From the NCBI GenBank assembly GCA_050010435.1, contig JBEKKZ010000006.1:128666-192665 (forward strand): 64,000 bases of DNA, read 5' to 3'. The stretch comes from Verrucomicrobiota bacterium. GTDB taxonomy: Bacteria; Verrucomicrobiota; Verrucomicrobiia; Limisphaerales; UBA11358. A model generated the notes under the pieces. That model searched no databases. It had not been told where the DNA came from and was given only the letters and a program-made list of their open reading frames with translations. The first letter of the stretch is position 1, and each line of letters opens with the position of its first letter. The translations under genes and the position numbers were made by a program. Of this stretch, positions 8,573-36,944 are shown piece by piece.

Positions 8573-8583
8573 ATTACAGTTTA

Positions 8584-8634
8584 TCAAATCTCCACCACCT
8601 GTTTGTATTCCGGCACGATGACTTTAGCTTCATT
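8584..8634 (-). repeat. relic copy of the 3' end of the MBL/beta-CASP gene
   Basis: 8586-8625 is identical over 40/40 nt to 9279-9318. The relic still encodes ...KVIVPEYKQVVEI followed by a stop. Confidence 0.85.
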
Positions 8635-8655
8635 GCGCGTTGTGGTGGCGCAAAA

Positions 8656-8976: not shown

Positions 8977-9226
8977 GTTCCTTGAGCTTGCGGCGGGTGC
9001 GGGAGCGGATGCGGTCGAAATCGGCATCGGCCAGCGGCCTGGCCGGACTGCGAACTCCGGCCAGAAGCTTGCGATCCAAATCGGGAATGTCCAGGGCGGC
9101 CGCCTGCTCGGCTTTTTCCAAGGCGCGCAAGCCCGCCCGCACGACTTCGCTGGAGTTGCCATAACGCCCGCCCTCGATCAAGTCGGCAACGAAGTCTTCG
9201 TAGTATTTGCTCAACGCAACATTCAT
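8963..9226 (-). CDS. parD: ParD-family (ribbon-helix-helix) antitoxin
   Basis: MNVALSKYYEDFVADLIEGGRYGNSSEVVRAGLRALEKAEQ... matches the ParD-type GRYxSxSEVVRxxLRxLE pattern. It lies directly upstream of the toxin and overlaps it. Confidence 0.75.
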   Translation of the reverse strand: MNVALSKYYEDFVADLIEGGRYGNSSEVVRAGLRALEKAEQAAALDIPDLDRKLLAGVRSPARPLADADFDRIRSRTRRKLKELEAA

Positions 9227-9276
9227 GGTCTAACTTTAGACTGATAACATTAGTTGTCAATAGACGTTATCACCAC

Positions 9277-10671
9277 TTAAATCTCCACCACCTGTTTGTA
9301 TTCCGGCACGATGACTTTGGCTTTTGGCTTCATTTGACGCAAGGTTTCGGCGTGGGCGAGACATTGCGATTCTTCGCCGTGAATGCAGACGATTTTTTTG
9401 ATGTCGCCGGAGATTCTTTCCACGTATTGCTTCAATTCGCCTTTGTCCGCGTGGCCGGAGTAGGTGTCGAGTGAAACAATTTTCGCGCGCACTTCCTGCG
9501 GTTCGCCAAAAATGTTCACCGGGTTCTTGCCGGCCACGATTTGCGCGCCCAACGTATTTTCCGCACAGAAGCCGATGAATAAAATCAAGTTCTTCGGATC
9601 GCCGATGTGGTTTTTCAGGTGATGCCGGATTCGCCCGGCTTCGCACATGCCCGACGCGCTGATGATAACGGCGGGTTCCTTCAGGTCATTGAGTATCTTC
9701 GATTGGTCGGCTTCGCGGATATAGGTCAGGTTCGACATGCCGAAGGGATTCGCCTTTTCGTGCAGGAACCGGTTGATGCTGTCGTTGAAACATTCCGGGT
9801 GCAGGCGGTAAATCTCCGTGGCGTTCACGCTCAACGGGCTGTCCACAAAAATCGGCACGCGCGGTAATTTGCCCGCGAGCGTGAGCTGGTTCAGCACGTA
9901 AACAATCTGCTGCGTGCGCCCGACCGAAAACGCCGGGATGATGACCTTGCCTTTTTGATTCAAGGTTTCCAGCACGAGCCGGCCAACGGTCTGGTCGGCG
10001 TCGGTGCGCACGTCATGTTCGCGTCCGCCGTAGGTGGATTCAATCTGCAGATAATCCACGTTTTCGGCCGGTTGCGGGTCGCGGAGAATTTCATCGTTGC
10101 CGCGGCCCACGTCGCCACTAAACAGGTAACGGAATTTTCGATTGCCTTCGCGCACGTCCAAAATGACCTGCGCCGCGCCCAGAATGTGTCCGGCGTCGCG
10201 AAACGTGACGGTGACGCCGTCCACAACCAGAAACGGGCGTTCGTAGCTGACGGCGACGAATTGATGCAACGTTTTCTCCGCGTCGGCGATGGTGTAAAGC
10301 GGTTCGACCGGCGGGAGTTTTTTCTTCGCCCGCTGCTTGGAGACGAACACGGCGTCGTCCATCTGGATGTGCGCGGAATCCACGAGCATGATGCTGCAAA
10401 GGTCGCGCGTGGCGAAGGTGCAATGGATGTTGCCGGTGTAGCCCTGCTTGACGAGGTTCGGCAGGTTGCCCGCATGGTCCATGTGCGCGTGGCTCAAGAC
10501 GACGGCGTCAATCTGCTTCGGGTCGAACGGAAAGCAGCAGTTGCGCTGGATGGATTCCTCGCGGTGGCCCTGAAAGAGGCCGCATTCGAGCAACAGCCGC
10601 TTGCCGTTGATCTCGAACAGGTACATCGAGCCGGTGGTGGTGCGCGCCGCGCCGAGGAAGTGGATTTGCAT
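9277..10671 (-). CDS. MBL-fold metallo-hydrolase with beta-CASP/RNA-specificity domain (CPSF73/RNase J-like)
   Basis: MQIHFLGAARTTTGSMYL...VLSHAHMDHAGNLP (HxHxDH), 464 aa, with a C-terminal beta-CASP-type region. Confidence 0.85.
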   Translation of the reverse strand: MQIHFLGAARTTTGSMYLFEINGKRLLLECGLFQGHREESIQRNCCFPFDPKQIDAVVLSHAHMDHAGNLPNLVKQGYTGNIHCTFATRDLCSIMLVDSAHIQMDDAVFVSKQRAKKKLPPVEPLYTIADAEKTLHQFVAVSYERPFLVVDGVTVTFRDAGHILGAAQVILDVREGNRKFRYLFSGDVGRGNDEILRDPQPAENVDYLQIESTYGGREHDVRTDADQTVGRLVLETLNQKGKVIIPAFSVGRTQQIVYVLNQLTLAGKLPRVPIFVDSPLSVNATEIYRLHPECFNDSINRFLHEKANPFGMSNLTYIREADQSKILNDLKEPAVIISASGMCEAGRIRHHLKNHIGDPKNLILFIGFCAENTLGAQIVAGKNPVNIFGEPQEVRAKIVSLDTYSGHADKGELKQYVERISGDIKKIVCIHGEESQCLAHAETLRQMKPKAKVIVPEYKQVVEI

Positions 10672-10755
10672 GGGGCAATCGTGTTGCGTATTGTGTGTTG
10701 CGTCAAGCAGCCACCCTGAGCCGCTGTTGAATACTTGACGTAATACGCACCATGC

Positions 10756-10974
10756 TTAGCTGTGCCGGTACGTGATGCGCGCCTTGTTCAAATCGTAGGG
10801 TGACATCTCAACGTTGACCTTGTCGCCGACGCTGATGCGGATGAAATTTTTGCGCATCTTGCCGGAGATATGTGCGAGCACTTCGTGGCCGTTAGGCAGC
10901 GCCACCCGAAACATCGTGCCGGGCAGCACTTGTGTAACGTTTCCACTTAATTCAATTGGCTCTTCTTTAGCCAC
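10756..10974 (-). CDS. infA: translation initiation factor IF-1
   Basis: A GTG start at 10974 gives (M)[69 protein letters not shown]. Confidence 0.9.
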
Positions 10975-11090
10975 TATGTGTCGTTGAATTATAAAAAGTA
11001 ATACCATTCGCCCCGCGTAAAATCAATTCATTTTCGCCGCAAAAATTCAGTGGACATCCGCCGCCATTTCGATAAAGTCACCGTAATCTT

Positions 11091-11348
11091 ATGAAAAATG
11101 ACAACATTACGACCGCTTTAAATCTCGTGCTGGCTGTGCTGGCGATTTTGGGCGTGATTTTCGCGCTGCAGACGATTTTCCGCACGCGCGAGTTGCGCTC
11201 CCTTCAAATGCAGGCAACCCAGGCCAACGGCTACAGCATGGCCGTCGAATCGCTCGCCAATGACGCATTCGCTTACAGCCAGAAAAATCCAAATTCGGAC
11301 ATTCTCCGTATCCTGCAACTCACTCAAGCCAAACCCGCCAACCGCTAA
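11091..11348 (+). CDS. small single-pass membrane protein, function unknown
   Basis: 85-aa ORF with one clear TM helix (LNLVLAVLAILGVIFAL). It is co-oriented with the next small gene. Confidence 0.4.
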   Translation: MKNDNITTALNLVLAVLAILGVIFALQTIFRTRELRSLQMQATQANGYSMAVESLANDAFAYSQKNPNSDILRILQLTQAKPANR

Positions 11349-11353
11349 TTGCC

Positions 11354-11704
11354 ATGAACGAATCTGAAACGAATTCCCGCGCGCAAACTGAATTGATGGA
11401 TCAGATTGTCGCTTTGCGACATCAGGTTTTCACACTGCTGCTCGCGCTCGTCGTGGTCAGTGGCACGCTCACTGTCGTTTTGTATCGGCAGGCCAGACTT
11501 ACCGGCAAAGACATTGCCGCCATTAAACCGCAAGCCACAAAAATCATTCAGGCATTCGCCCAAAGACGCGCGGGCATGGAAAATTTCGTGAAACAACTCA
11601 CGGCCTACGGCAGCACGCACCCCGACTTCCAGCCGATTCTCCTAAAATACGGAATTGTGCCGCAGGCACAACCCGCCGCCACACCCGTCGCGCCTAAGAA
11701 GTAA
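11354..11704 (+). CDS. small single-pass membrane protein, function unknown
   Basis: 116-aa ORF with one TM helix (FTLLLALVVVSGTLTVVLY), 6 nt after the previous ORF. Confidence 0.4.
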   Translation: MNESETNSRAQTELMDQIVALRHQVFTLLLALVVVSGTLTVVLYRQARLTGKDIAAIKPQATKIIQAFAQRRAGMENFVKQLTAYGSTHPDFQPILLKYGIVPQAQPAATPVAPKK

Positions 11705-13772: not shown

Positions 13773-15062
13773 ATGGCAGCCAAAATTCCAGTTCGGCAGC
13801 GCACGCGCACGACGGCGTCGGTCATGATCCTCGGCGTCGGGTCGTTCGCGCACAGCATCGGGCGGGCGCTGGCGGACGCGGGCTCAAACGTTTCGACTTA
13901 TCTCACCCGCAATTACGGCCATTTCCCGCCGTCGCTGGTCGGGCCGACATTTTCGCGCGACGCGTTTCCCAGCCCGGTTCCGCTCATCAAGAAAAACGGC
14001 GTGGAGGTCGTCATCCCCCAATCCATTGATTGGGCGCTTGCACCCTGGGCGGAGGATTTGTTGCAGTCAGGCGCCGGCATTTTCAGCCCCACGCGCGAGG
14101 CGATGCGCATCGAGCGCGAGCGCAACTTCGCCCGCAAGCTGTGTGCGGATTTCAAAATTCCGTTTCCGCAGGCCTACGTTGCCTCAAACCTTCTGGCGGC
14201 CGAAAAAATCCTGGCGCGGCATCCGCAGCCGTTCGTCATCAAAAATCCGCTCTGCTCGCCGACGAGTCCGATCCACACGATCCTCTGCGAGACGGTTGAG
14301 GACACCCGCGCGTGGCTGCGGCACGTCAATTATGCCGAGGGGGTTTTTTTGCAGGAATATCTCGGCCGCGTCGAGGCCGGACACATCGTGCTGGTGAGCG
14401 GCGGCGAGATTTATTCGCTCGTCACGAACCAGGAATACAAATACGCCTTCAATGGCAACCAGGGCGTCGTCGCCGGCGCGCCGCTCGGCGGGTTGGTCGA
14501 GCGAGATCCGGACGACAAATACGGCCTGGCGCGAAAACTCATCCATCCGTTGCTGCCGTGGTTGCGGGCGGCGAATTTCAACGGGCCGCTGCAGGTCACC
14601 GCCATCAAGCGCGGCAGCCGATGGCACGTCATCGAATACAACATCCGCATCGGCGTCACTTCCGGCCCGATGATCTTGCGGATGCTCAAGCATCCGGCGG
14701 AAGTTGTTTTACGAACCGCGCAGAACCAGAAGCTGGACCTGCAGTTCAACGAAAAACTCGATTTCGGCTGTTCACTCACGCTGGCCGGTTACGGCTATCC
14801 CTTCATCCAGGTGCGCAGCCCGCATCTGCCGCTGGAAGTGGACGGGAAATTCGATTGCGATGTTTGGTGGAACGAAGTGGCCCGCGGCGCGGACCAAAAG
14901 CTCATGTCCACCGGCCATCGCATTGCGGACGTGATTGCACTGGCACCCAGGCTCGACGCGGCGATTGCCAGGGCTTACGCGAACATCCGCAAAATCCGGG
15001 TGGTCGGGAGCTATTTCCGGACGGACATCGGGAAAAGTTTATGGCCGCCGGGCACCATCTGA
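13773..15062 (+). CDS. ATP-grasp enzyme, PurD (phosphoribosylamine-glycine ligase)-like
   Basis: ILGVGSFAHSIGRAL... is a PurD-like N-domain. PFVIKNPLCSPTSP... and the ATP-grasp-like core follow. An alternative start is at 13824. Confidence 0.55.
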   Translation: MAAKIPVRQRTRTTASVMILGVGSFAHSIGRALADAGSNVSTYLTRNYGHFPPSLVGPTFSRDAFPSPVPLIKKNGVEVVIPQSIDWALAPWAEDLLQSGAGIFSPTREAMRIERERNFARKLCADFKIPFPQAYVASNLLAAEKILARHPQPFVIKNPLCSPTSPIHTILCETVEDTRAWLRHVNYAEGVFLQEYLGRVEAGHIVLVSGGEIYSLVTNQEYKYAFNGNQGVVAGAPLGGLVERDPDDKYGLARKLIHPLLPWLRAANFNGPLQVTAIKRGSRWHVIEYNIRIGVTSGPMILRMLKHPAEVVLRTAQNQKLDLQFNEKLDFGCSLTLAGYGYPFIQVRSPHLPLEVDGKFDCDVWWNEVARGADQKLMSTGHRIADVIALAPRLDAAIARAYANIRKIRVVGSYFRTDIGKSLWPPGTI

Positions 15063-16754
15063 ATTCCCTTGATGTTTTAACGCCTCCGCCTTGTGTTCGT
15101 GTATCGCTGCGCGCTTAAAGTTGTCCACGGACTTGAAATGCGCCGCCAGTTCGCGCTGCAGTGCATATTCAACCGATTCGCGTTGGAGCGAACGTTTCGA
15201 CCAAACAAGGCCAAGTGCCGCCAGGCCGGCCAGCAAGACAGCGATTCCCGCCGGATTTGCCCGCGCCAAACCAAGGGCCCCGCGCGCCAGCCCGCATCCG
15301 CAAAGACTGATAAACAAGACCAATCCGCATGACAGTATCGCCATGGAATGGCGCAGCAGCCACTGCGAAAGGACGGCCAACCGACCCGGGATTTGAGCGG
15401 ACGATGGCGGAAGACACACTGCGGGCATGATGGTCTGCAGTTTTGCATTGTTCAGCACTTGCAGGACCAGCTTTGGGTCCGGGCGCACGGTGGGTTTTTC
15501 AAGAAATCCGGCCGCGTCACCCGTGGCCATGAATGTTTCCACGCGTTCTTCCGCCACCAGGTTCATCATGCGACTGGGAATCAAAAGATCTTCCACCACG
15601 ATCTGTGAAATCCGGCCCAGGCCAAAAAAAATGACGCCGGCAAAAACCAGCGGCAACAACATCCCGGTCCGGTTCAGCCATTGGCTGCGCAACCCCGACT
15701 GTTGGAGCAGCACCGTTGCGAAAAGACCAGCAATGACAAAAATATTCAATACGTCCATGTAACGACTGGCTGGAACCGCCTCCCCATAATTCGCGCGTCC
15801 GTACGCCAGGGCGGCGGATTGCAACCCGCCCCACAGCCCGAAGACCAGCAGAAACTCAGCCGCCCGCGGCTCCGAAAAGTTGGGCCGGAAATACAAGGCA
15901 ACCAATACCGCCAGGGGCAGCGAAAGCAGGCACACCATTTCCGGAGCGTTGTAAAATGGCCAGGTCAGGTTGCGCGCCAGGGCGGAGGTAAATTCCATCA
16001 ATGAATGCGCCCGCAAGGGACGATCACCTTCCATCGTAACGCTCAGGGCCGCACCCAGCCCAATCACCACCAGGCACGCGCCCAGCGTGATCAAATTTTC
16101 CCTTTCCATCCGCCGGTTTTTTATGGCGCGCAAAACCATCAGCCCGCCAACCGCCATCGGCGCAAGCAAACCCGAAGCCATGGTAAACAAACCCATGATC
16201 GCCGCGGCCAATCCAAACCACCATCGCCGGCCCCCCGGTTTTCCAAACCCCAGTCCGGCCAGTGTCGCCAATGAAAAGATGCTCAGGAAATATTGTTGGG
16301 AATTGATTGCCCAAATGGTGTTTTCCGCGGCATAGGGCAGCGCGAAAAATGGCGCCAGCAGAAAACAAATGAGCCATCCGCTTTTCCGCCCCAGAAAATC
16401 CCACAGGCAAAACGCCAGTCCGCAAACGAAAATCGCGTGGATGAACGCGTTGACCGTCATCTGCAACAACGGCTCCCATCGCCCGTTCAGCCAAATGACG
16501 CCCAAATCGAGCAGGCGGGTGAAGAGAATTCGATGCTCATTATCGGGCGCAAAAAAGGCCTGCCACGTCAGATGCCCTTCCACCCAGGGCCGGAAAAACA
16601 ATTCCGCCTCATACCACTGATCCCACAATGGAAGGGGCGACCCATAAAGCTGCACCACCCACAATTTGGCCCCCAGCACGACCAAAAACAACGCGGCCAG
16701 CCATACGCTGAAATGTTTGAACGAGTCGCTCGTCGGGTTCGTTGGCCTGGTCAT
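15039..16754 (-). CDS. polytopic membrane protein, paralogue A (possible GT-C-type glycosyltransferase)
   Basis: Its N-terminal about 100 aa align closely with the next gene (VVLGAKLWVVQLYG...WDQWYEAELFFRPWVEGHLTW...DNEHRILFTR). It has more than 10 predicted TM segments. Confidence 0.6.
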   Translation of the reverse strand: MTRPTNPTSDSFKHFSVWLAALFLVVLGAKLWVVQLYGSPLPLWDQWYEAELFFRPWVEGHLTWQAFFAPDNEHRILFTRLLDLGVIWLNGRWEPLLQMTVNAFIHAIFVCGLAFCLWDFLGRKSGWLICFLLAPFFALPYAAENTIWAINSQQYFLSIFSLATLAGLGFGKPGGRRWWFGLAAAIMGLFTMASGLLAPMAVGGLMVLRAIKNRRMERENLITLGACLVVIGLGAALSVTMEGDRPLRAHSLMEFTSALARNLTWPFYNAPEMVCLLSLPLAVLVALYFRPNFSEPRAAEFLLVFGLWGGLQSAALAYGRANYGEAVPASRYMDVLNIFVIAGLFATVLLQQSGLRSQWLNRTGMLLPLVFAGVIFFGLGRISQIVVEDLLIPSRMMNLVAEERVETFMATGDAAGFLEKPTVRPDPKLVLQVLNNAKLQTIMPAVCLPPSSAQIPGRLAVLSQWLLRHSMAILSCGLVLFISLCGCGLARGALGLARANPAGIAVLLAGLAALGLVWSKRSLQRESVEYALQRELAAHFKSVDNFKRAAIHEHKAEALKHQGNSDGARRP

Positions 16755-16880: not shown

Positions 16881-18887
16881 TTACCCGGCAGCAAAATTCC
16901 GTTCCAACCAGACCCACGCCAGCGCGACCAATCCGGCCAATAAAACAAGCAATTCAACCAAGCCGTGGTTCAAAAAAAGACTTTTCCCGATGATGCAGCG
17001 AACCACGCCCCATCCGGAAAGCAAAACCCCCAAACCCAACCCGGCCAATAAAATGACGACCGCGTGGTTGAGCAGCAAAAGCGCGTAATAGGAAAGACGT
17101 CCGCATTGGTTGATTTCGCCCACTGCCACCCACGTGTCATGATTTTGATTGGTGACTTCCAGCCGGAATGGGTTTTGGGGCGCCGACACCATGATCGCCT
17201 GCCACCGTCCGGTGCTTTCCGGATGCAGTTCAATTCTGCGACCGGTGGATTGTTCCACCAGCTGAAGGCTGACACCTTCCAGCCTGGGCCCGCAGCATAA
17301 TTTCAGGCTCAGTTTTGGCAAAGTGGCGCACAGTGGTTTGCTGACAAAATGCCCGGTCACGGCCACTCCGTTTGAGCAATTACCCCACACGGGTATGAAT
17401 TCCTGTTCTGGTGTTCCGGGCGGGCAACCATTCAGAACCAATGCGGCATCGGATTTTTCGTCCCTTTCCAGTTTTAATGGCGGACGGCAGGCGGCAGGCA
17501 TAATCCGCAACAGGTTGGGATCACGCAGCAATTCCACCAACACATTAGCGTCCGAATACGGAATATCCCAAAGCGGTTTGTTTAGCAAACAGGCAGGATC
17601 GTCCGTGGCAACAAATGCCCGCACATTTTGCTCCTCAATCCGGCCCATCCGCCGGCTGAACTGCATGTAATTTTCCGCCCGGCCACCGCCCATCGTTGCC
17701 CAGGAGATCTGCCACATTCCCAAAAACAAACAACCTGCCCAAGCCATCGCCAGCAGACCCACCAACGGCCGTGACAGCCGGCGATATTCTGTATTCTCTC
17801 CCAGGATGAACAAACTGGCCAGACTCGCGACGGAGAGGGTGCAGAGGGTGTCCATGTATCGGCTGCTGTTGCCCAAGTGCGCGCGTCCATAAGCCAGGGC
17901 CGCGGCCTGCAGGAAACCCCAAAAGCCAAGGGTTAGAACAAATTCAGCCGCCCGGGGGTCTTTGAAGTCCGACCGGAAGTATTTGATGACCGTGATCGCC
18001 AGCGGCAGACAAATGGCCAACAGCAAGGCCGGCTGATTCATGAACGGCCATGCCAGATTGCCCAGCAGCGCTTCCCCAAATGTCAAAAACCGTCCGGCCC
18101 GGTAATGCCCGTGTTTTTGAATGGCAACATCCAGGATCAGGCCGGAAATAAAAACCACCAGACTGCAACCAAGGGTAACCCATTGACCTTGAATGATGCC
18201 CCTCCGCTTTAACCGGCGAAGAACCAGCAGCCCGATGACGGCCAGGGAAGCCAATAAACCGGACCCCATCGTAAAGAGGGACATCCCCGCCGTTGCGAGC
18301 CCGCAAAACCACCAGCCGCCACCCGGCGAACCGAACCCCAGTCCGATGATGGTGACAACGGCAAAAATGCTCAAAAAATATTCCTGGGAATGAAAGCCGT
18401 GAATCGTATTTTCAGCCGCAAAGGGAAAGGCGAAAAACGGCACCAGTAAAAAACAGATCAACCCTTCATGTTTTCGACCGGTAAAAATCCACAGGCCATA
18501 CGCCAGTCCGCAGGCATAGCCGGTGTGAATGAACGCGTTGATGACCATCTGCAGGATGGGGTCCCACTGGCGGTTGAGCCACAACCCCAACAAGTCCAGC
18601 GCGCGGGTGAAAAAAATCCGGTGCTCGTTGTGCGGTGCAAACCATGCGCCCCACGTCAGATGGCCTTCCAGCCAGGGTTTGAACAAAAGCTTCGCTTCGT
18701 CCCATTGATCCCAGTAGGGAATGGCCGTTCCGTACACCTGGATCACCCAAAGTTTGGCCCCCAGCACCACCAGCAACAACGCCGACAACCACGCCGCGAG
18801 CCGCCGGTTGAAATTTTTGGACTGCACGCGACTGTGGTACTCATCAACCATCCGCAAATCAAGAACGTCCGCGTTGGGGCAAACCAC
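16881..18887 (-). CDS. polytopic membrane protein, paralogue B, with an extra C-terminal soluble region
   Basis: VVLGAKLWVIQVYG...WDQWDEAKLLFKPWLEGHLTW...HNEHRIFFTR. 668 aa. An alternative start is about 12 codons downstream. Confidence 0.6.
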   Translation of the reverse strand: MVCPNADVLDLRMVDEYHSRVQSKNFNRRLAAWLSALLLVVLGAKLWVIQVYGTAIPYWDQWDEAKLLFKPWLEGHLTWGAWFAPHNEHRIFFTRALDLLGLWLNRQWDPILQMVINAFIHTGYACGLAYGLWIFTGRKHEGLICFLLVPFFAFPFAAENTIHGFHSQEYFLSIFAVVTIIGLGFGSPGGGWWFCGLATAGMSLFTMGSGLLASLAVIGLLVLRRLKRRGIIQGQWVTLGCSLVVFISGLILDVAIQKHGHYRAGRFLTFGEALLGNLAWPFMNQPALLLAICLPLAITVIKYFRSDFKDPRAAEFVLTLGFWGFLQAAALAYGRAHLGNSSRYMDTLCTLSVASLASLFILGENTEYRRLSRPLVGLLAMAWAGCLFLGMWQISWATMGGGRAENYMQFSRRMGRIEEQNVRAFVATDDPACLLNKPLWDIPYSDANVLVELLRDPNLLRIMPAACRPPLKLERDEKSDAALVLNGCPPGTPEQEFIPVWGNCSNGVAVTGHFVSKPLCATLPKLSLKLCCGPRLEGVSLQLVEQSTGRRIELHPESTGRWQAIMVSAPQNPFRLEVTNQNHDTWVAVGEINQCGRLSYYALLLLNHAVVILLAGLGLGVLLSGWGVVRCIIGKSLFLNHGLVELLVLLAGLVALAWVWLERNFAAG

Positions 18888-27661: not shown

Positions 27662-28498
27662 TTAGTGGACTTCGGCGGTGAAAGTCCCGACGACATAACT
27701 CTTTTGATCGTCCGGCGTGCAGAGATAAATTTTCCCCGGCAACTGGCCCCCGGCAGGTTGTCCGAACTCGATTCGCAGCGCGTATCCCCCCTTTACCGAT
27801 TCCGTCATGGGCTGGCCTTGTGCGTCCTTCCATCGCAGATTGACCATCGGCGCGTTTGTAGCATTGATCTTGATAACCACTGACTTCCCGAAGAGGTTCT
27901 CATTCCGCTTCTCCCGAAGATAAATGGTGATGCCGGCTTCCGGCGGATTATCCGCCGTGCGTATCGTTAACCCGTCTGCATTCAAAACCATCCGCTGTGG
28001 AATCAAAACTTTTCCGTGAATATACCCCACCGCCGGCGAATCCGGAATCGTCATCGTGTCCAGGTTCAACGTCCAATTCGTATCGTTGGCAGGCCGTTCA
28101 GCGACGACCGGCCCGGGCGGCACTGGCGTAGCTGTTCGTTTCTCGTCCGACGCGGTTGCGGTCTGGTTGGTTTGCCCGCTGGTGGATTTGAAGATTTTTC
28201 CACGGAACACGAACGCTGCCGCAACCGCTGCGCAGAGCAAAACCGCAAAGACGAACACCGCTACCGGAAAAGGCTTCTCGGGCGCGGTTGCCGCTCCCGA
28301 ATCCGCCTCCGCAGTCGGAATGGGACGCTCACCGACTTGTGTTCCTGCAATGATAAATTTCGGGTCGTCCGTTTCGGGCGCTTGCGGTGCGGTGATTTTC
28401 TGGAAGCACGTCGGGCATTCCATCGTTGTGCCGCTCTGCGATGAGTCGCATAGGATGTGCTGGCCGCAAACCGGACACGCATATTTAAATTCGCTCAT
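27662..28498 (-). CDS. zinc-ribbon / single-TM / periplasmic-domain protein, tandem paralogue 1
   Basis: MSEFKYACPVCGQHILCDSSQSGTTMECPTCFQKITAPQAP... (CPxC...CPxC), a TM helix FPVAVFVFAVLLCAAVAAAFVF, a Pro-rich linker, and a C-terminal domain shared with paralogue 2. Confidence 0.6.
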   Translation of the reverse strand: MSEFKYACPVCGQHILCDSSQSGTTMECPTCFQKITAPQAPETDDPKFIIAGTQVGERPIPTAEADSGAATAPEKPFPVAVFVFAVLLCAAVAAAFVFRGKIFKSTSGQTNQTATASDEKRTATPVPPGPVVAERPANDTNWTLNLDTMTIPDSPAVGYIHGKVLIPQRMVLNADGLTIRTADNPPEAGITIYLREKRNENLFGKSVVIKINATNAPMVNLRWKDAQGQPMTESVKGGYALRIEFGQPAGGQLPGKIYLCTPDDQKSYVVGTFTAEVH

Positions 28499-28613: not shown

Positions 28614-29465
28614 TTACTTTTGTTTGGCCGTTTTGGGTTTGCGGATTTCGGCATCGAAGTTCCCGGCGATGTAACTTTTCTCGGCGTCCGGTGTGCATAG
28701 ATAAACTTTCCCCGGCATACGATTGCCGGCAAGTTGGCCAAATTCGATCCGCAGCGCGTAGCCGTTCGTGAAATTTTCCCGCAGGGACAGGTTGCCCTCC
28801 TTCCAACGCAATATGACATGCGCTGCCTTTTCTGCGTTGGTGGCGACATTGATGGACTGTCCGGCAAGCGCTTCGGTCAACACGCCACCGAAATTGATTA
28901 TCGCGCCCAAATCCGTTGCGCCGCGCAACGTCAGTGTGCCCCCCTGCAAAATCGCGCGGTCGCAAATAAAGTCCCGTCCGTGGATGCGCCCCGCCACCGT
29001 CGAATCAGGAATCGTCACTGCCGCGAGTTCCAACATCCAACTCGCATCATTTGCCGGCGGCGCGACGACGACGGGTTTGGGCGGTGGCGGCGGCCTGACG
29101 GGCTTTTGCGATGGGGAGGGCCCTGGCGCGCCTTGCCCGCCGCTGGACTTGAAGATCCTTCCATGGAACGCAAACAGCGCTACCGCCGCAGCGCAGAGCA
29201 AGACGATGAAGACAATGGCCGGCAGGGAAGAATTTTCCTGCGGCGCGGGTGTGGGCGCCGCTTCCGAATCCGCCACCGCGGTCGGAATGGGACGTTCGCC
29301 CACTTTCGTGCCTTTTATGATGAATTTCGGGTCGTCCGTCGCGGGGGCTTGCGGGGCGGTGATTTTCTGGAAGCAGGTCGGGCATTCCATCACCGTGCCA
29401 GCCTGCGACGAGTCGCACTTCATGTGCTGGCCGCACACCGGACATGCATATTTGAATTCGCTCAT
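28614..29465 (-). CDS. zinc-ribbon / single-TM / periplasmic-domain protein, tandem paralogue 2
   Basis: MSEFKYACPVCGQHMKCDSSQAGTVMECPTCFQKITAPQAP..., with the same architecture and C-terminal domain type as paralogue 1. Confidence 0.6.
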   Translation of the reverse strand: MSEFKYACPVCGQHMKCDSSQAGTVMECPTCFQKITAPQAPATDDPKFIIKGTKVGERPIPTAVADSEAAPTPAPQENSSLPAIVFIVLLCAAAVALFAFHGRIFKSSGGQGAPGPSPSQKPVRPPPPPKPVVVAPPANDASWMLELAAVTIPDSTVAGRIHGRDFICDRAILQGGTLTLRGATDLGAIINFGGVLTEALAGQSINVATNAEKAAHVILRWKEGNLSLRENFTNGYALRIEFGQLAGNRMPGKVYLCTPDAEKSYIAGNFDAEIRKPKTAKQK

Positions 29466-29652: not shown

Positions 29653-30582
29653 TCACTCGACCGTGAATTGGAAGAGGCTGTGGGAGAGGATAATCTTCCA
29701 GTCAGCGGTGTCCTTCACAAAAAAATAGACATCATACGGACCCGGCGGCAACCGGATGCCAAAAGTGCCCTGATAGCGGCCGTTCTCATCGGTCATAGCC
29801 GGGCTAAAATCGAAATACTTCTGTGGATTGTTGCGTGTCAATTGTTCCGGCAAATTGTTGTTTCCCGCGTGCTGGATGGCGCCGTTGATGGTGAGGATAT
29901 ATTTGTGATTGGGGACGAGACCTGCAAGTGTTACCCCGATTACCAATCCACCGGGGAATGAGTCATGATACCGGATTTCGCCGGTGGCACCCGGAACTTC
30001 GCGACCGAATCCGGGCAGAGTCGTTGTCAACGGCAGAGGCTCTTCAAATGGCAAAGGACGCGCGAGATCAGCCTTGAAAGCAGCAAGGAATGAAGCCTGT
30101 GCCGGGTCTTTCACTTCAGCCTCATTTGTTCCGGCTCCAAGCACGATGCTGTCACCTTTGGCGAAGATGGCACACGCCAGCCCGACAATCGGTTTGGGCG
30201 GCGCTGGTGGAGGCATTTGCTTCCCATTCGACGCAGATGCGATTTGATTGGTTTGCCCGCTGGTGGACTTGAAATTTTTTCCACGGAACACGAACGCTGC
30301 CGCAACCGCTGCGAAGAGCAAAACCACAAAGACGAACGCCAGTGCCGGAAAATGCTTCTCGGGGGGAGTTGCCGCTCCCGAATCCGCCACCACGGTCGGA
30401 ATGGGACGTTCGCCCACTTTCGTGCCCGTGATGATAAATTTCGGGTCGTCCGACGATTTAGGCGCTTGCGGGGCGGTGATTTTCTGGAAGCAGGTCGGGC
30501 ATTCCATCACCGTGCCGCTCTGTGACGAGTCGCACTTCATGTGCTGGCCGCACACCGGACACGCATATTTAAATTCGCTCAT
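29653..30582 (-). CDS. zinc-ribbon / single-TM protein, tandem paralogue 3, with a different C-terminal beta-rich domain
   Basis: An in-frame ATG at 30582 inside the artefactual 980-aa ORF gives 309 aa. The N-terminus is MSEFKYACPVCGQHMKCDSSQSGTVMECPTCFQKITAPQAP... The C-terminus ...GRYQGTFGIRLPPGPYDVYFFVKD... is unrelated to paralogues 1 and 2. Confidence 0.6.
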   Translation of the reverse strand: MSEFKYACPVCGQHMKCDSSQSGTVMECPTCFQKITAPQAPKSSDDPKFIITGTKVGERPIPTVVADSGAATPPEKHFPALAFVFVVLLFAAVAAAFVFRGKNFKSTSGQTNQIASASNGKQMPPPAPPKPIVGLACAIFAKGDSIVLGAGTNEAEVKDPAQASFLAAFKADLARPLPFEEPLPLTTTLPGFGREVPGATGEIRYHDSFPGGLVIGVTLAGLVPNHKYILTINGAIQHAGNNNLPEQLTRNNPQKYFDFSPAMTDENGRYQGTFGIRLPPGPYDVYFFVKDTADWKIILSHSLFQFTVE

Positions 30583-30690
30583 GGCGCGGGTGATCTGTGT
30601 TTTGCCTAGCTTTAACATCCCATTTTCAAAACCGGACTGCAATCCGGCATTTTCATTTGTGGCGGCGCTCGGTGATCGCCGTTCTAGTTT
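30583..30690 (-). repeat. conserved leader unit upstream of paralogue 3
   Basis: Third copy of the leader, with the hairpin ACCGGACTGCAATCCGGC at 30631-30648. Confidence 0.65.
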
Positions 30691-30792
30691 CATCGGCCAA
30701 ATGATTCTGCGATGGTCATGAACCGCCACGGCAAACTCATTTGAGAGTGACTTTTGGCACCGTCGGGCGCACATTCGAGACCGTTGAAGCGC

Positions 30793-32193
30793 ATGAAAAA
30801 AATCTCTCCCGTTTCCCGTAGCGGACGCTTCGCGCGCGGCCCCGGCGCGGACGTGACACAATTCACCGAATCCGTTTCTTTTGACTGGCGGCTGTGGCAG
30901 CATGACATCCTCGGCTCGCTCGCCCACGCCGCCATGCTCCGCAAAATCGGCGTGCTCTCCAAAATAGAGGAAGTCGCCATCATCCGCGGACTCGACAAGA
31001 TCGGACGCGAAATCGCCACGGGCAAATTCAAGTGGAAACCCGAACTCGAAGACGTGCACATGAACATCGAGGCCTCCTTGACGAGGCGTGTTCCGGCGGG
31101 CGCCAAACTGCACACCGCCCGCTCGCGCAATGACCAAGTCGCGCTCGACATGCGCCTCTGGCTGCGCGACGAAATTGTTTTGCTGCTCGGCGAAATTGCC
31201 GGTTTGCAACGCGCGCTGGTCAGCCTCGGCGAAAAGAATTCCGCCGTGTTGATTCCGGGCTACACCCATTTGCAACGCGCGCAGCCCGTTTATCTCGCGC
31301 ATTATCTGCTCGCCTACGTCGAGATGCTCGAACGCGACTGCGAACGGCTTTGGGACTGCCACTCGCGCGTGAACGTCTGCCCGCTCGGCAGCGGCGCGAT
31401 TGCCGGCTCCACGCTGCCGCTTGACCGTGTGTTTGTCGCCAAACTCCTCGGCTTCGTGGATGCGAACGGCAAACCGCAGCTCACGCAAAATTCCATGGAC
31501 GCCGTCGGCGACCGCGATTTTGCCGTCGAATTTTGCGCCGCCGCCGCGCTGCTCGCCGTTCACATTTCGCGGCTGGCTGAGGATTTGATTCTTTGGACGA
31601 GCGCGGAATTCAATTTCATCAAAATCGCCGACGCCTACACCACCGGCTCGTCGCTCATGCCGCAAAAGAAAAACCCCGACATCGCCGAGCTTGCGCGCGG
31701 CAAATCCGGCCGCGTCATCGGCAACCTCGTCGCGCTGCTCACGCTGCTCAAGGGCCTGCCCATGACCTACAACCGCGATTTGCAGGAGGACAAGGAACGG
31801 GTGTTTGACACCGCCGACACCGTGCGTGCCACCACACGCCTCATGGCCGCGATGCTGAAGAACACAAAAGTAAATCGCGCCACCTGTACTGCCGCCGCAA
31901 GCGACCCGGCGCTGCTGGCGACGGATTTGGCCGATTATTTGGTGAAAAAGGGAATGCCATTCCGGCAGGCGCATCACGCGGTTGGCGCCGTCGTGGCACT
32001 GGCGGAAATATTGGACAAGCCGCTGAACCAGCTTTCGCTTGTGGAACTGCAATCCGTGGACAAAAAGTTCGGTCGCGATGCACTGGGCGTATTCGATTTG
32101 CAGCGCGCGATGGCTAAACGAAATCTGACCGGCGCGCCGGGAACGAAGGAAGTCGCGAAGCAACTGGCGCGCTGGCGGGAACAGCTTTCGTAA
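30793..32193 (+). CDS. argH: argininosuccinate lyase
   Basis: SGRFARGPG...GYTHLQRAQPV...GSSLMPQKKNPD is the fumarate-lyase signature. ATG 30793 is preferred over 30754. Confidence 0.9.
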   Translation: MKKISPVSRSGRFARGPGADVTQFTESVSFDWRLWQHDILGSLAHAAMLRKIGVLSKIEEVAIIRGLDKIGREIATGKFKWKPELEDVHMNIEASLTRRVPAGAKLHTARSRNDQVALDMRLWLRDEIVLLLGEIAGLQRALVSLGEKNSAVLIPGYTHLQRAQPVYLAHYLLAYVEMLERDCERLWDCHSRVNVCPLGSGAIAGSTLPLDRVFVAKLLGFVDANGKPQLTQNSMDAVGDRDFAVEFCAAAALLAVHISRLAEDLILWTSAEFNFIKIADAYTTGSSLMPQKKNPDIAELARGKSGRVIGNLVALLTLLKGLPMTYNRDLQEDKERVFDTADTVRATTRLMAAMLKNTKVNRATCTAAASDPALLATDLADYLVKKGMPFRQAHHAVGAVVALAEILDKPLNQLSLVELQSVDKKFGRDALGVFDLQRAMAKRNLTGAPGTKEVAKQLARWREQLS

Positions 32194-32202
32194 GCACCAG
32201 CA

Positions 32203-32679
32203 ATGGAAATCGTCTATCTCGAAACGACGTTTTTCAGTTTTTACCACGACGAACGGCCCGCACCAGCCATCGTGGCGATGCGAGATTGGACTCGGCAGTT
32301 TTGGACCGAGCGGCGCGAAGATTACGCCTTGGTCACAAGCGCGGCGGTTTTGGACGAATTGCGCAAAGGCGGCGCGCACCACAAAAAACCAGCGTTGGAT
32401 TTGGCTCTCACGTTGCCGTTGATTCCGGGCGGCCATGAAGTCGCAGAAATCGTTCAGGCCTACGTGAAGCACAAGCTGATGCCGGAAGACCCGGCAGGCG
32501 ACGCGCTGCATCTGGCATTGGCTTCGTTCCACGAATGCGACTATCTTGTGACGTGGAATTGCCGGCATTTGGCGAACGCCAACAAGTTCGGCCACATCCG
32601 GCGGATCAACGCCATGCTGGGATTGAAGACGCCGGAAGTGGTGACGCCGCCGGAATTGCTGGGAGAAATTGAAACATGA
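32203..32679 (+). CDS. PIN-domain protein (VapC-like toxin)
   Basis: MEIVYLETTFF...GDALHLALASFHECDYLVTWNCRHLAN...TPPELL follows the PIN acidic-residue pattern. It also carries the WNxxHxxN C-terminal block seen in one VapC-like subfamily. Confidence 0.7.
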   Translation: MEIVYLETTFFSFYHDERPAPAIVAMRDWTRQFWTERREDYALVTSAAVLDELRKGGAHHKKPALDLALTLPLIPGGHEVAEIVQAYVKHKLMPEDPAGDALHLALASFHECDYLVTWNCRHLANANKFGHIRRINAMLGLKTPEVVTPPELLGEIET

Positions 32680-32909
32680 ACGCAGCGGACAAAGCCATTG
32701 AGGAAATCCGGGCGGTGCGGCACCGCATCTCCACGGAGCATGGGCATGACATCACGAAATATCTCGTCAGCCTGCGCGCGGAGGAAAAACAGCATCCGGC
32801 GCAACTCAAGCGCGGCAAGGAATTACTGGCCCGGCGGCTCGCGGAACGCAAAAAGTATCCGGCGCTGGCCGGCAATGCGCTGGTGCTGCGCGAACGTCCC
32901 AAAAAGTGA
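32676..32909 (+). CDS. small partner protein of the PIN gene (putative antitoxin)
   Basis: 77 aa. Its start overlaps the PIN stop (ATGA). It is charged and helical: MNAADKAIEEIRAVRHRISTEHGHD... Confidence 0.5.
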   Translation: MNAADKAIEEIRAVRHRISTEHGHDITKYLVSLRAEEKQHPAQLKRGKELLARRLAERKKYPALAGNALVLRERPKK

Positions 32910-32937: not shown

Positions 32938-33036
32938 GGATTGCAACGCACAATGGCGAAGCGAAACCTGACCAGCGCTCCGGGAACCAAGGAAGTCGCG
33001 AAACAACTGGCGCGGCGGCGGGAACAGCTTTCGTGA
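32938..33036 (+). pseudogene. relic second copy of the argH 3' end
   Basis: 80 of 93 aligned nt are identical to 32101-32193 in my hand alignment. It encodes ...LQRTMAKRNLTSAPGTKEVAKQLARRREQLS*, against argH ...LQRAMAKRNLTGAPGTKEVAKQLARWREQLS*. Confidence 0.85.
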
Positions 33037-33054: not shown

Positions 33055-34485
33055 ATGATTACCGAAGAACAAATCAGGCAAACCGTTTCAAAGGCTGAAG
33101 AATTACTTCAGGATTGCTGGGCAAAACTTTCCGACATGAAGAATGCGGAAAATTTCTTTTCGTTCCAACCCACATTACTAACTGCCCTCTATCAAATCGA
33201 GTCGGCCTACCGAACAATCTGCAAAGAAGAACGTGAACTGATTTCACAAAAATTATCATCCAATAAAAACCAGTTCGCGGAGCGGATGAAAACATTGGCT
33301 CGCTACAAAAGTGTATTGACCCAAGTTTTGGACATTGGCAAAGCGTTAGGTGATTCGTTCGCGTGGATTTTTTACGGAAATGAAAAAGAACTCTTAAAAA
33401 AACACTATGACCACGAGTTTATTCCTCACCTTGCACTTGGAATCGGAGGGCGCGGTGAATATGAATTTGCCAAGAACGCTCCCCGGTTTGGAAAATACAT
33501 TGTGTTAGCGCACTCAATCACAACATTTCTTCGTCTCGGAGATGTCAGCTTAATAGATCCGATTGACTTAAAAGTTGTGGCTATTGGCGAACTTAAATCA
33601 CAGAAAAAATCCGACACCAAAATTTCTGTCAACATTACCTTCATCGGAGCAAAGTTGCCGAAGGAAATGCTTCCCAAGGTTTCGGAAGTGCAAGGCGAGC
33701 CTATCAAGAAAATTTCAGAACAACTTCCGCCGGCGCTTTTGACCCGCCTCAAGAAACAAGTCAAAGGCATGCAAGAAGCATTTAAACCACCACTTCAAAA
33801 CCATCCGCCCAATAAAATTGAAATGCATTTGGTTGAAATGAAGCTCAAAGAACTTTTTGACCGTTCGTCACTGGGCAAATGGGGAAGCATCAAAGTTGAC
33901 CGTGGATTATTGTTGGTCGGCATGAGGTTTGAAGAAATGCCTCTTTATTTACACTTAAAAGGAGTGCCGTTAGAAACAGGAGGAAACTTCCAACAAAACA
34001 TGGAGAAGTTGAAAGTTGCAACAGCAGAAATTCTTGATAAGAGCTTGTCCCAAAATTTTATTTTAACGTCTTGGATTCTCTATCCAGCAAATGGCAGATA
34101 CTTTCATCCATTCGGCATGATGCCTCTGTTCTTTTGGCCTTTGGATACCGCAGTGCGCAAAGCAATAATTTTTCGACAAATGCGAGTTATGACTTTATAC
34201 AATCCCGGTTTTTTAATCGATGAACTGAATCGAAATGGGTTTGAGGTTCAATTTGGGAAAGACAGGGATTTAAAAATTGTGAAGCATATTGGCGAGAAGC
34301 GCATGGAATTTTCAGGAATGGGCTATTTTATTGGAGCAGTTAGAACTCAATTTTTATCTGATGCTGGTATCGTAAATTTGGCTCGGATGGCAGTTGAAAA
34401 AATTGAAGCGGAAAATTTCAAGCAACCAACTAATATCAGTTTGGATTTTGATTTCCTTTATAATCAGATTGTTGATTCTGTCTAA
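33055..34485 (+). CDS. AT-rich orphan protein, 476 aa, with a PD-(D/E)xK-like motif; function unknown
   Basis: A long uninterrupted ORF in a region where two counted lines give 43% and 45% G+C. The motif LRLGDVSLIDPIDLKVVAIGELKSQKK lies at 33532-33609 (D at 33541, E-x-K at 33589-33597). I recognise no family. Confidence 0.6.
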   Translation: MITEEQIRQTVSKAEELLQDCWAKLSDMKNAENFFSFQPTLLTALYQIESAYRTICKEERELISQKLSSNKNQFAERMKTLARYKSVLTQVLDIGKALGDSFAWIFYGNEKELLKKHYDHEFIPHLALGIGGRGEYEFAKNAPRFGKYIVLAHSITTFLRLGDVSLIDPIDLKVVAIGELKSQKKSDTKISVNITFIGAKLPKEMLPKVSEVQGEPIKKISEQLPPALLTRLKKQVKGMQEAFKPPLQNHPPNKIEMHLVEMKLKELFDRSSLGKWGSIKVDRGLLLVGMRFEEMPLYLHLKGVPLETGGNFQQNMEKLKVATAEILDKSLSQNFILTSWILYPANGRYFHPFGMMPLFFWPLDTAVRKAIIFRQMRVMTLYNPGFLIDELNRNGFEVQFGKDRDLKIVKHIGEKRMEFSGMGYFIGAVRTQFLSDAGIVNLARMAVEKIEAENFKQPTNISLDFDFLYNQIVDSV

Positions 34486-35522: not shown

Positions 35523-36944
35523 ATGCAAATCATGAAGTTGTTGCCCACGGTTTGTGCGGTTGCCTTTTGTGCGAGTTTCATTTCCGTCCGAGCGGATGAC
35601 ACCCCGGTTCAAGCCGCCGCGCGCGGGGCTTTGGAACAAAAGATGAACCAATTGGATGCGCAACAAACCCAGGCACCACCTGTTGTGGTTACTTCTCCCG
35701 GCGCCGTGAAGGTGCAACCAAGCAAGCTCACAACTAAAACTGTCCCCGCCAAGGCAACAACGCCGGCAACCAAGACAAAAATTCCAGCGACCACGGCAAC
35801 GACGCCAGCGACCAACTCAACGACTCCGGCGACCAAGTCAACGACTCCGGCAGCCAAGTCAACGACTCCGGCAGCCAAGACAACAACTCCGGCAACCAAG
35901 ACAACAACTCCGGCAACCACGGCAACGACGCCAGCGACCAAGGCAACAATTCCGCCGGCCACGGCAACAACGCCGGCACCCAAGACAACAATTCCGCCGA
36001 CCACGGCAACAACGCCCGGGCCAACCCCGATGCCCGTTGCGCCTGAATCACAAAGTCCGCCAACCGCAACGATGACACCAGCGCCTGCCACTCCGCCACC
36101 AACGAAAATTCTGTCTGCGATGCCGACGCCAACCGAAGCCCAACCCCAACCGGCGACTACGATAACAGTGCCCGAACCAACCCCGATGCCCGCTGCGCCC
36201 GTTGCGACTAAACCAGAAAGTCCGCCGGTGGCAACGATGCCAACAGAGACTATACCTGCCACACCGCCGCCAGCCGAAACCAAGCCGGCACCGATGATGG
36301 CTCCGGTCGAACCGGCAGCAGCAGCGACAATCACTTCGGAAACCAACGCTGTCCCGGCGGCTTCCGGAACGACGCCCGCTGCGCCCGTTGCGCCCGAAAC
36401 AGAAAGTCCGCCGGCAGAGACAACGCCGGCAGAGGTTACACCCGCCACACCGCCGCCAGCCGAAACCAAGCCGGCGCCGATGATGACTCCGGTCGAACCG
36501 GCAGCAGCAGCGACAATCACTTCGGAAACCAACGCTGCCCCGGCGGCTTCTGGAACAACGCCCGCGGCGCCCGTTGCGACGACGCCGACAGAGATTACAC
36601 CCGCCACTCCTCCACCAGCCGAAACCAAGCCGGCAGCCCCGACTCCTGAGATGAAGCCTGCGCCGACCGTGGAAACGGTTCAGCCCGCGGCGGGCACAGT
36701 TCCTCAAAGTCCCGCGATGGCCGCCGCGATAAAAGTCAAACCCGGCGTGAAGAGCGCGACGAACCAGATCAGCGCAATTTATACAGGAAAAGAACTGGGC
36801 TTGAAGCCGATTGAATCGCCGCTCCTGCCGATTTCCGCGACCCAACAAGCGCAACTTCAAGCCTTGCTCGAAAAATACAAGGCCAACCAGATCACACCGG
36901 AGGAATATTACAACCAGCGCGCGGAAATACTGGCCCAGCCATAA
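35523..36944 (+). CDS. secreted Pro/Thr/Ala-rich repeat protein with a SHOCT-like C-terminal motif
   Basis: Signal peptide MQIMKLLPTVCAVAFCASFISVRA. Extensive TTPATK repeats. The C-terminus is QLQALLEKYKANQITPEEYYNQRAEILAQP. Confidence 0.65.
   Translation: MQIMKLLPTVCAVAFCASFISVRADDTPVQAAARGALEQKMNQLDAQQTQAPPVVVTSPGAVKVQPSKLTTKTVPAKATTPATKTKIPATTATTPATNSTTPATKSTTPAAKSTTPAAKTTTPATKTTTPATTATTPATKATIPPATATTPAPKTTIPPTTATTPGPTPMPVAPESQSPPTATMTPAPATPPPTKILSAMPTPTEAQPQPATTITVPEPTPMPAAPVATKPESPPVATMPTETIPATPPPAETKPAPMMAPVEPAAAATITSETNAVPAASGTTPAAPVAPETESPPAETTPAEVTPATPPPAETKPAPMMTPVEPAAAATITSETNAAPAASGTTPAAPVATTPTEITPATPPPAETKPAAPTPEMKPAPTVETVQPAAGTVPQSPAMAAAIKVKPGVKSATNQISAIYTGKELGLKPIESPLLPISATQQAQLQALLEKYKANQITPEEYYNQRAEILAQP
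35752..36015 (+). repeat. 21-bp (7-aa, S/T-TTPA-x-K) tandem repeat, about 12 copies, in frame
   Basis: TCAACGACTCCGGCGACCAAG, TCAACGACTCCGGCAGCCAAG, ACAACAACTCCGGCAACCAAG and similar units abut each other directly. Confidence 0.8.
36246..36635 (+). repeat. long in-frame tandem duplication (about 186-bp unit, about 2.3 copies)
   Basis: E(T/V)(I/T)PATPPPAETKPAPMM(A/T)PVEPAAAATITSETNA(V/A)PAASGTTPAAPVA occurs twice (starts 36246 and 36432). A third partial copy starts at 36591. Confidence 0.8.

Follow-up and report, generated by a model that had tools for sequence, protein, structure and literature searches.

The gene at positions 33055..34485 (+ strand) of a 64,000-nucleotide (nt) stretch of DNA from a Verrucomicrobiota bacterium (assembly GCA_050010435.1, contig JBEKKZ010000006.1, positions 128,666 to 192,665; the whole stretch is called the window here) encodes a protein of 476 amino acids (aa) that belongs to an undescribed family, with a predicted uniform three-part architecture for which our modelling found no structural relative in the PDB. 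We tentatively favour, at somewhat less than an even chance, the view that this family is a stand-alone, horizontally mobile, metal-dependent DNA endonuclease that acts in defence and discriminates self from non-self by itself. That these proteins form a new family of single-gene defence nucleases is plausible, and how they would work is something we infer. If confirmed, a widespread, previously unannotated single-gene defence nuclease family would be added to the catalogue of bacterial immunity.

A widespread family of hypothetical proteins

The gene call (ATG start, stop codon included) is based on the list of open reading frames (ORFs), on homologues, on the ratio of nonsynonymous to synonymous substitution rates (dN/dS) and on G+C content (GC). 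An earlier note on this DNA, made from the sequence alone, had described the gene as an orphan of no recognisable family. The second statement holds, since the 476-aa protein matched no family in Pfam, NCBIfam, PADLOC, PHROGs or the PDB sequences. The first does not: a word-indexed search found 76 homologues, with E-values down to 3e-263, every one annotated as 'hypothetical' and none with a Pfam domain, and an exhaustive HMMER search covering 1.84 billion cluster representatives recovered 577 clusters (50% identity) at E<=1e-3, 325 of them at E<=1e-30, almost all full-length. The family thus comprises at least 577 clusters. Nearly all of the 76 homologues are 460-500 aa long (most typically ~470-490 aa, with the stop codon counted), a uniform length that is typical of the family as a whole, and its architecture is invariant, not modular. 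A profile built from these alignments would label hundreds of 'hypothetical proteins'.

A conserved D...(D/E)xK motif

The earlier note had read residues 160-185 as the core layout of a PD-(D/E)xK nuclease. The string is present, although its true start is residue 159, and taken from one protein it says little: a comparable hydrophobic-D...(D/E)xK pattern arises in 42% of shuffles of the 476-aa protein, so that the motif of a lone sequence has no statistical weight. It becomes meaningful solely through its conservation across the family, which was assessed in 58 and then in 103 diverse sequences, the 103 representing different 50% clusters. In the alignment columns D163 is present in 103/103 and K181 in 103/103, while position 179 is E in 99 and D in 4; the triad is thus a true hallmark of the family that selection has maintained, and the conserved D...(D/E)-x-K expected of the catalytic residues in the PD-(D/E)xK superfamily is found throughout the 103 sequences. 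Its codons lie at 33541-33543 (D163), 33589-33591 (E179) and 33595-33597 (K181), spanning 33541..33597 on the + strand as counted from the ORF start. The triad belongs to a wider set of invariant polar residues. Positions that never vary are Q38, G99, G131, E135, H153, L159, G162, D163, K181, Q235 and N383, and D100, H117, T156, R160 and E179 are conserved in >=90% of the sequences.

Predicted structure and putative active site

The AlphaFold2 model, built from the 58-sequence alignment, is a confident single body (predicted local distance difference test, pLDDT, 88.5; predicted template modelling score 0.90) in which three parts can be distinguished. An N-terminal helical bundle (residues 1-118; 33055..33408, +), where pLDDT is mostly >90, is predicted to consist of helices 4-26, 31-64, 71-107 and 111-118 and carries the conserved residues Q38, G99, D100, W104 and H117. 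The putative catalytic core (residues 129-242; 33439..33780, +) was delimited by the secondary structure of the model and by conservation in the 103 sequences. In the model it starts with a glycine-rich GIGGRGE loop that leads into helix 130-141, which bears E135, followed by strand 148-152, H153 and a loop with T156 and R160; D163 is placed just before strand 164-168 and E179-x-K181 in strand 173-184, after which come strand 190-198 and helix 226-242 with Q235. The C-terminal alpha/beta domain (residues 263-462; 33841..34440, +), defined by the model and by conservation, matched nothing in any library; its conserved residues are N334, G354, P357, W360, N383, P384 and G395, and it possibly serves in DNA binding or regulation.

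A helix with E, a strand, a strand with D, a strand with ExK and a helix with Q is the textbook order of a PD-(D/E)xK nuclease. In the predicted secondary structure, which is the only level at which this was seen, the catalytic residues of the family fall on consecutive strands after a helix with an acidic residue. The candidate active site would thus be PD-(D/E)xK-like, with E135 on the helix after the glycine-rich loop, D163 at the start of the next-but-one strand, E179-x-K181 within the strand that follows that of D163 and Q235 on the next helix, and with H153, T156 and R160 in the intervening loop. The N-terminal bundle and the C-terminal domain would pack on this core as one rigid body and probably provide DNA recognition and/or gating. 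Since the window and ~87% of the homologous loci have no DNA methylase nearby, discrimination of self from non-self would be intrinsic to the protein and not the task of a linked modification enzyme; it could be of the type IV kind (modification-dependent) or be triggered by infection.

The similarity searches weigh against this reading, and so do the genomic settings described with the inheritance of the gene. Compared with the PDB by Foldseek, the full model gave a best E-value of 0.94, with no nuclease among the top 50 matches, and against BFVD the best E-value was 0.35, with nothing significant. The core modelled separately (residues 119-300, pLDDT 69.5) reached at best E 0.81 in the PDB, again with no nuclease in the top 50; its top matches were GNAT proteins, which are non-significant at a template modelling score (TM) of ~0.2. 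The matches to GNAT, ESCRT-III, 14-3-3 and translin folds were all discarded as weak and reflecting generic helices and sheets. Among the 103 members searched against Pfam at E<=1 there was no consistent match to a PD-(D/E)xK or any other family, and full-length and core profiles run against the PDB sequences returned designed coiled coils, a low-complexity artefact, and nothing else. In hhalign, the GRGE, GDVSLID and AIGELKS segments of the family proved co-linear with GilGE, GEVDLI and FVEVKTR of YraN (UPF0102), represented by a real YraN gene from one of the loci, used as a single sequence and as a shallow 20-sequence profile of relatives >80% identical. The score was not above chance, being reached by 73/200 column-shuffled controls, and the shallow profile gave P = 0.08 against shuffles. 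Alignment of the family profile with the Mrr_cat domain from a neighbour gene produced nothing.

Foldseek is weak on the PD-(D/E)xK fold, and its null results are therefore to be read as failed detection, not as proof of absence. The core fold shared by the solved members (alpha-beta-beta-beta-alpha-beta) was nevertheless not recovered in these searches, nor was sequence or profile similarity to any member of the clan by Pfam, PDB profiles or hhalign. The structural check proposed in the earlier note, a nuclease-like fold at the motif, was therefore not cleanly passed: the order of the residues fits and no Foldseek match is significant. The core layout that the note had claimed stands as far as the (near-)invariance of the triad and its predicted placement are concerned, but not as a fold assignment, and not from the lone motif, which chance could produce. 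Because the fold and profile tests failed, we speak of a PD-(D/E)xK-like active-site layout and not of a member of the superfamily; membership of the fold is unproven.

These results leave room for an enzyme of another chemistry on a novel fold, defensive or not, for instance a nucleotide- or phosphate-binding hydrolase or transferase that would use the GIGGxGE glycine-rich loop together with H117, H153, R160 and D100. A glycine-rich loop at the N-terminus of a helix, as found here, is typical of phosphate binding; the confident model resembles no nuclease structure; invariant polar residues extend beyond the triad (Q38, D100, H117, H153, T156, R160, N383); and the bare D...ExK pattern is common by chance. 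Against it, E, D, (D/E)xK and Q follow one another on helix, strand, strand and helix in the canonical nuclease order, the recurrent operon-like linkage is specifically to DNA methylases, and the GNAT resemblance is too weak to point to another enzyme. We regard this alternative as unlikely, though a serious one.

Horizontal spread and foreign composition

Returning to the favoured reading of a mobile nuclease, the distribution of the family bears out its mobility. A scan of one genome per species yielded 41 loci, a patchy set that spans at least 10 phyla, with representatives in Verrucomicrobiota, Kiritimatiellia, Acidobacteriota, Alpha-, Beta-, Gamma- and Deltaproteobacteria, Nitrospirota, Planctomycetota, Elusimicrobiota, Deinococcota (Trueperaceae), Bacillota (Roseburia, Clostridia) and Gracilimonas. 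Its members belong to bacteria of many phyla that live in soil, peat and water, and their architecture is not represented in the PDB. The nearest genomic relative of the 476-aa protein, at 78% identity, is encoded in a metagenome-assembled genome of Limisphaerales, the order to which the window probably belongs.

The gene in the window had been called compositionally foreign and AT-rich, and so it is: its GC is 0.403, compared with 0.569 for the whole window, 0.606 for the upstream argH and 0.596 for the downstream squalene-synthase gene, the last of which is ~60% and not ~68% as estimated before. It has the lowest GC among the ~55 genes of the window, and in a sliding window GC is 0.37-0.44 inside the gene and ~0.55-0.64 on both flanks. 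The same holds for the family, whose genes are lower in GC than their flanks in 43/44 loci (median difference -9.8 points), supporting horizontal acquisition.

By tblastn, no copy was found in 50,697 phage and 72,556 plasmid records, and an origin from phages or plasmids was accordingly rejected. The gene is not an insertion sequence (IS) or transposase either: a single copy was seen per scanned genome contig set, the gene has diverged vertically together with its flanks, and the 18 nt before it and 2 nt after it leave no space for terminal repeats.

At one locus (L058 6718-9101; L numbers denote loci of the family) the homologue P0074 is cut to 366 aa at its junction with a DDE transposase gene, the two overlapping by 4 nt, an example of decay by IS insertion.

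Inheritance and selection at the argH locus

In the window the order of genes is argH, a PIN-like gene, a 77-aa gene, a relic of the argH end and the 476-aa gene. The relic (32953..33036, +), the displaced original 3' end of argH, stops 18 nt before the ATG of the 476-aa gene; its positions 32953-33034 are 89% identical over 82 nt to the present 3' end of argH (32110-32191), and its translation matches argH residues 446-479. On the other side, a squalene/phytoene synthase gene (PF00494, E 3e-52) starts at 34488, 2 nt past the stop codon, which confirms the neighbour named in the earlier note. That note had also recognised a relic gene end and an insertion hot spot, and both observations are confirmed by relatives that carry differing cargo between argH and the relic. 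L062 has argH, the family gene and squalene synthase in uninterrupted order, and its intact argH ends at the same position relative to the family gene as the relic does; in L064 the family gene directly follows argH; L001 has argH, a 77-aa gene (81% identity to that of the window), the relic (L001 9886-9981) and the family gene, with no PIN-like gene; and in L014 other genes separate argH from the relic (3091-3128). The argH 3' end is thus an integration hot spot, and the inserts supply the gene with a new end. The window contains no integrase.

The inserted pair (32203..32909, +) consists of the PIN-like gene for 158 aa (32203-32679) and the 77-aa gene (32676-32909), which overlap by 4 nt. 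It had been taken for a PIN toxin-antitoxin neighbour, with the suggestion that the 476-aa gene might be part of a toxin-antitoxin-assisted system. The PIN call is below threshold (PIN_3, 19.2 bits with a cut-off of 27, E 0.002; the PIN match likewise), and searches of the pair against PADLOC, NCBIfam and the PDB gave no match. Since the family gene is retained in L062 and L064, which lack the pair, and in L001, which has only part of it, the pair is a later insertion, upstream of the 476-aa gene and separate from it, with the relic dividing the two. Neither a conserved linkage nor a bona fide PIN (VapC-like) domain was found, leaving a toxin-antitoxin-assisted system unsupported; the pair is context, not part of the system.

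The three genomes of the window, L001 and L014 were compared for selection. The family gene has a dN/dS of 0.16-0.18 at a synonymous divergence (dS) of 0.64-0.78, and argH, in the same genomes, a dN/dS of 0.12 at a dS of 0.80. The family gene is therefore functional, and it has co-diverged with its flanks in the lineage of the window. Its GC at third codon positions (GC3) is 0.36-0.41, compared with 0.75-0.78 for argH, and the lack of amelioration despite a dS of ~0.64-0.80 suggests selection for AT-richness or for rare codons, for example to limit the expression of a toxic product. An AT-rich gene that persists under purifying selection in a GC-rich block of core genes makes this a case for studying non-amelioration.

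The stable inheritance between argH and squalene synthase is unusual for a defence gene, which would be expected to turn over fast, and many other copies lie between housekeeping genes (metH, purF, sdhB, a Cys/Met PLP enzyme) with no defence gene nearby. Both points favour a gene with no role in defence, either a selfish or addictive island gene or an accessory gene of DNA metabolism domesticated in the Verrucomicrobial lineage, as do the dS equal to that of argH, the distance of only 2 nt to the start of the squalene-synthase gene and the absence of copies from the phage and plasmid collections. The patchy distribution over phyla and the consistently foreign composition argue against this, as do the variable contexts with apparently enriched methylase and defence neighbours and the decay of one copy by a transposase insertion. 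On balance we find a gene unconnected with defence improbable.

Linkage to DNA methylases and neighbouring defence genes

The case for the favoured reading, in which a nuclease acts in defence, draws on what surrounds the family. Genome and metagenome scans provided 112 non-redundant loci, 104 of them with neighbours; genes were called with a rough caller of our own and methylases found by homology seeds and a DPPY/NPPF motif screen, and the context counts should be read as such. A same-strand neighbour within 50 nt is absent in 73/104 loci. A DNA methylase lies within two genes in 11/104 loci by homology, or 14 with the motif matches included, always on the same strand, and in 10 cases it is immediately adjacent, at gaps of -59 to +79 nt; the co-orientation of these 10/10 compares with a background of 0.64 (P = 0.011). 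Copies linked to a methylase are spread over at least 6 of 20 deep clades, and the methylases show three architectures or more: N6_N4, either alone or fused to an Mrr_cat domain, MmeI-type and Eco57I-type. Among the +/-1 neighbours ~6% are methylases, a proportion that would far exceed what genomes usually contain. The operon-like association with DNA methylases, seen in a minority of lineages, is non-random.

The earlier note had remarked that the gene has no methylase partner. This is true of the window, where PADLOC found no methyltransferase among 52 proteins and where the 64 kb hold no DNA methyltransferase, helicase or ATPase partner, but not of the family, 11-14/104 loci of which have an adjacent same-strand methylase. 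The expectation that homologues would be found next to defence genes was likewise borne out in part, since the contexts are variable and often include defence genes or DNA methylases, while many loci are purely housekeeping. The other neighbours encode TIR_2 (twice), SieB, HNH_5, SLFN_AlbA_2, an integrase, Wadjet JetA/JetB (JetB with DUF3375), a Zeta toxin, a KaiC-like ATPase, and serine and tyrosine recombinases; the TIR, SieB, HNH, Schlafen, Wadjet and Zeta toxin genes are scattered occurrences. All-against-all clustering of the neighbours (42, then 112 loci) revealed no universally conserved partner gene; the clusters that recurred as apparent partners were generic two-component-system proteins and were set aside.

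Several loci show particular arrangements. In L004 and L020 (for example L020 4025-5530) an N6_N4 methylase with a C-terminal Mrr_cat domain (E 4e-6) is encoded directly upstream of the family gene, and in L004 a TIR_2 gene follows downstream, giving a compact three-gene, defence-like cluster. In L134 the family gene lies 79 nt downstream of an MmeI-type neighbour of 771 aa (5606-7921), which aligns to residues 198-946 of the L008 enzyme and hence has no N-terminal nuclease domain; here the family gene may supply the cleavage function. In L015/L010 (6897-9977) a 1026-aa HerA/TrwB-like ATPase (DUF87, TrwB_AAD_bind) overlaps by 4 nt the start of the family gene at 9974-11434. In this subclade of 486-aa proteins a 253-aa protein precedes the ATPase, and a serine recombinase and tyrosine integrases follow the family gene, so that the subclade may represent a variant system of three genes carried by an integrative element. 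All that is left at the position of the ATPase in L055 is a 148-aa ORF (7558-8004), with the family gene at 8001-9461.

The methylase-linked loci could also indicate an accessory or guard nuclease of restriction-modification (R-M) systems, comparable to PrrC in EcoprrI, held inactive by a methylase or type IIG enzyme, or cooperating with it, and set free upon inhibition of that enzyme; copies that stand alone, like that of the window, would have lost their partner or would use one encoded elsewhere. Consistent with this, the family gene lies immediately downstream, on the same strand, of self-sufficient MmeI- and Eco57I-type enzymes (L008/L017, L075/L059), at gaps of 14-50 nt by our own gene calls and 44-50 nt by those of the database. 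The partners in L008 and L075 retain a D...ExK nuclease motif of their own and are therefore complete R-M enzymes. The family gene also adjoins the N6_N4 methylase-Mrr_cat fusions of L004 and L020, and the linkage recurs in several clades. Against a guard nuclease, ~87% of the loci have no methylase within two genes and 73/104 have no same-strand neighbour within 50 nt, purifying selection has maintained the gene in the lineage of the window, whose 64 kb hold no methylase, and the partners come from unrelated families, which speaks against a specific protein-protein interface. We judge this a little more improbable than a gene without a defence role. Least probable of all is a classical restriction (R) subunit of the type II kind, with its cognate methylase elsewhere in the genome: L029 encodes a 328-aa N6_N4 methylase whose gene overlaps the end of the family gene by 4 nt, as is typical of an R-M pair, stand-alone methylases adjoin in L135 and L137, and the MmeI-type partner in L134 lacks the N-terminal nuclease domain, but most copies have no nearby methylase (the 64-kb window has none at all), R genes without a linked methylase are dangerous and seldom found, the methylase partners are of several families and probably differ in specificity while the nuclease family is uniform, and no PADLOC REase model matched.

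If the family is indeed a stand-alone defence nuclease, its repeated, facultative coupling to several classes of DNA methylase would bear on how such nucleases are layered onto R-M systems. A bolder version of this reading, which we consider doubtful, is that of a structurally new, ~470-aa single-chain immune nuclease family whose active site mimics, or is very distantly derived from, that of the PD-(D/E)xK enzymes. Its members would act alone yet be repeatedly wired into operons with unrelated methyltransferases, type IIG enzymes and, in one clade, a HerA/TrwB-like ATPase; they would thus be portable second-layer effectors, their genes kept AT-rich by selection (GC3 ~0.4 in a genome of GC3 0.75, at a dS of ~0.75).

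Other genes in the window

Three tandem paralogues on the - strand (27662-28498, 28614-29465 and 29653-30582) encode proteins with a zinc-ribbon-like start, MSEFKYACPVCGQHMKCDSSQ...CPTCFQKI, followed by a hydrophobic segment. The first and second are 55% identical, and the third is 75% identical to the second over the N-terminal 110 residues and differs in its C-terminus. A spurious antisense ORF of 980 aa (29653-32595) crosses the third paralogue and argH. A further pair of tandem paralogues on the same strand (15039-16754 and 16881-18887; 571 and 668 aa) is 50% identical over 434 residues and had no PADLOC match. A 473-aa Thr/Pro/Ala-rich low-complexity protein is encoded at 35523-36944 (+); it has a signal-peptide-like start and many near-repeats (TTPATK..., ATPPPAETKPAP...). 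Its gene shares part of its length with a long antisense ORF (35609-36628).

The PADLOC model for Shedu SduA (DUF4263) matched 2/52 window proteins, with E-values down to 5e-9, and single window proteins matched PD-T4-6 and PDC-M60B. When ten candidate window proteins were tested singly, none proved responsible for the SduA-model matches, which may be false positives, their count equalling that of the two proteins with response-regulator domains in the window.

Comparison with known systems

The motif layout of the family recalls Hjc, YraN and Mrr. As in the core of the Hjc, YraN (UPF0102) and Mrr-type enzymes, the conserved residues come in the same order and spacing, with a Gly-x-x-Gly-Glu in the first helix, a [G]D that opens a strand, a hydrophobic-(D/E)-x-K in the next strand ~16 residues further on and a conserved Gln on the following helix. 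In contrast to these, the family protein has 476 aa instead of ~120-300, with obligatory N- and C-terminal domains, and its invariant Q38, D100, H117, H153 and N383 have no counterpart in them. From the PD-(D/E)xK superfamily as a whole it differs in having no significant sequence, profile or structure similarity to any member.

A subset of the family genes recalls PrrC and RloC, which are embedded in R-M loci, in lying within or right beside complete R-M enzymes encoded on the same strand. Unlike those ATPase-anticodon nucleases, the family protein has no P-loop ATPase, and most of its copies are not next to R-M genes. Nor does the family look like a type II R-M component, which is expected next to its cognate methyltransferase: 0/52 window proteins and 11-14/104 loci provide one. 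Like type IV enzymes such as Mrr, the family is encoded by a gene that usually stands alone and lacks a cognate methylase, is rich in AT and horizontally acquired, and in some cases has R-M systems next to it; the window and ~87% of the loci would correspond to a solitary nuclease gene of this kind, to judge from gene content. The operon-like arrangement with a methylase in a minority of loci is unexpected for type IV enzymes, and Pfam detected in the family neither a modified-base reader domain (SRA, EVE/YTH, Mrr N-terminal and similar) nor Mrr_cat.

Shedu (SduA, DUF4263), whose N-terminal sensor domain varies, is a single-gene PD-(D/E)xK defence nuclease. Like it, the family consists of single polypeptides of a few hundred residues that combine a putative nuclease core with extra domains, and it too is horizontally mobile and occurs in defence contexts. 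In the family protein the putative core lies in the middle, in Shedu at the C-terminus; the architecture is invariant in the former and modular in the latter, and the 476-aa protein matched neither the SduA models of PADLOC nor Pfam DUF4263. The recently described Upx is a single-gene dual PD-(D/E)xK defence nuclease of 1272 aa with three domains and two nuclease sites (PMC13099982). We rejected it as a relative, as it is unrelated in sequence and 2.7 times longer than the family protein (PMC13099982); a Upx-like structure, if already in the PDB copy that was searched, did not match the 476-aa model. By analogy, the family would work most like these single-gene PD-(D/E)xK defence proteins, namely Shedu, the Mrr-type type IV enzymes and Upx.

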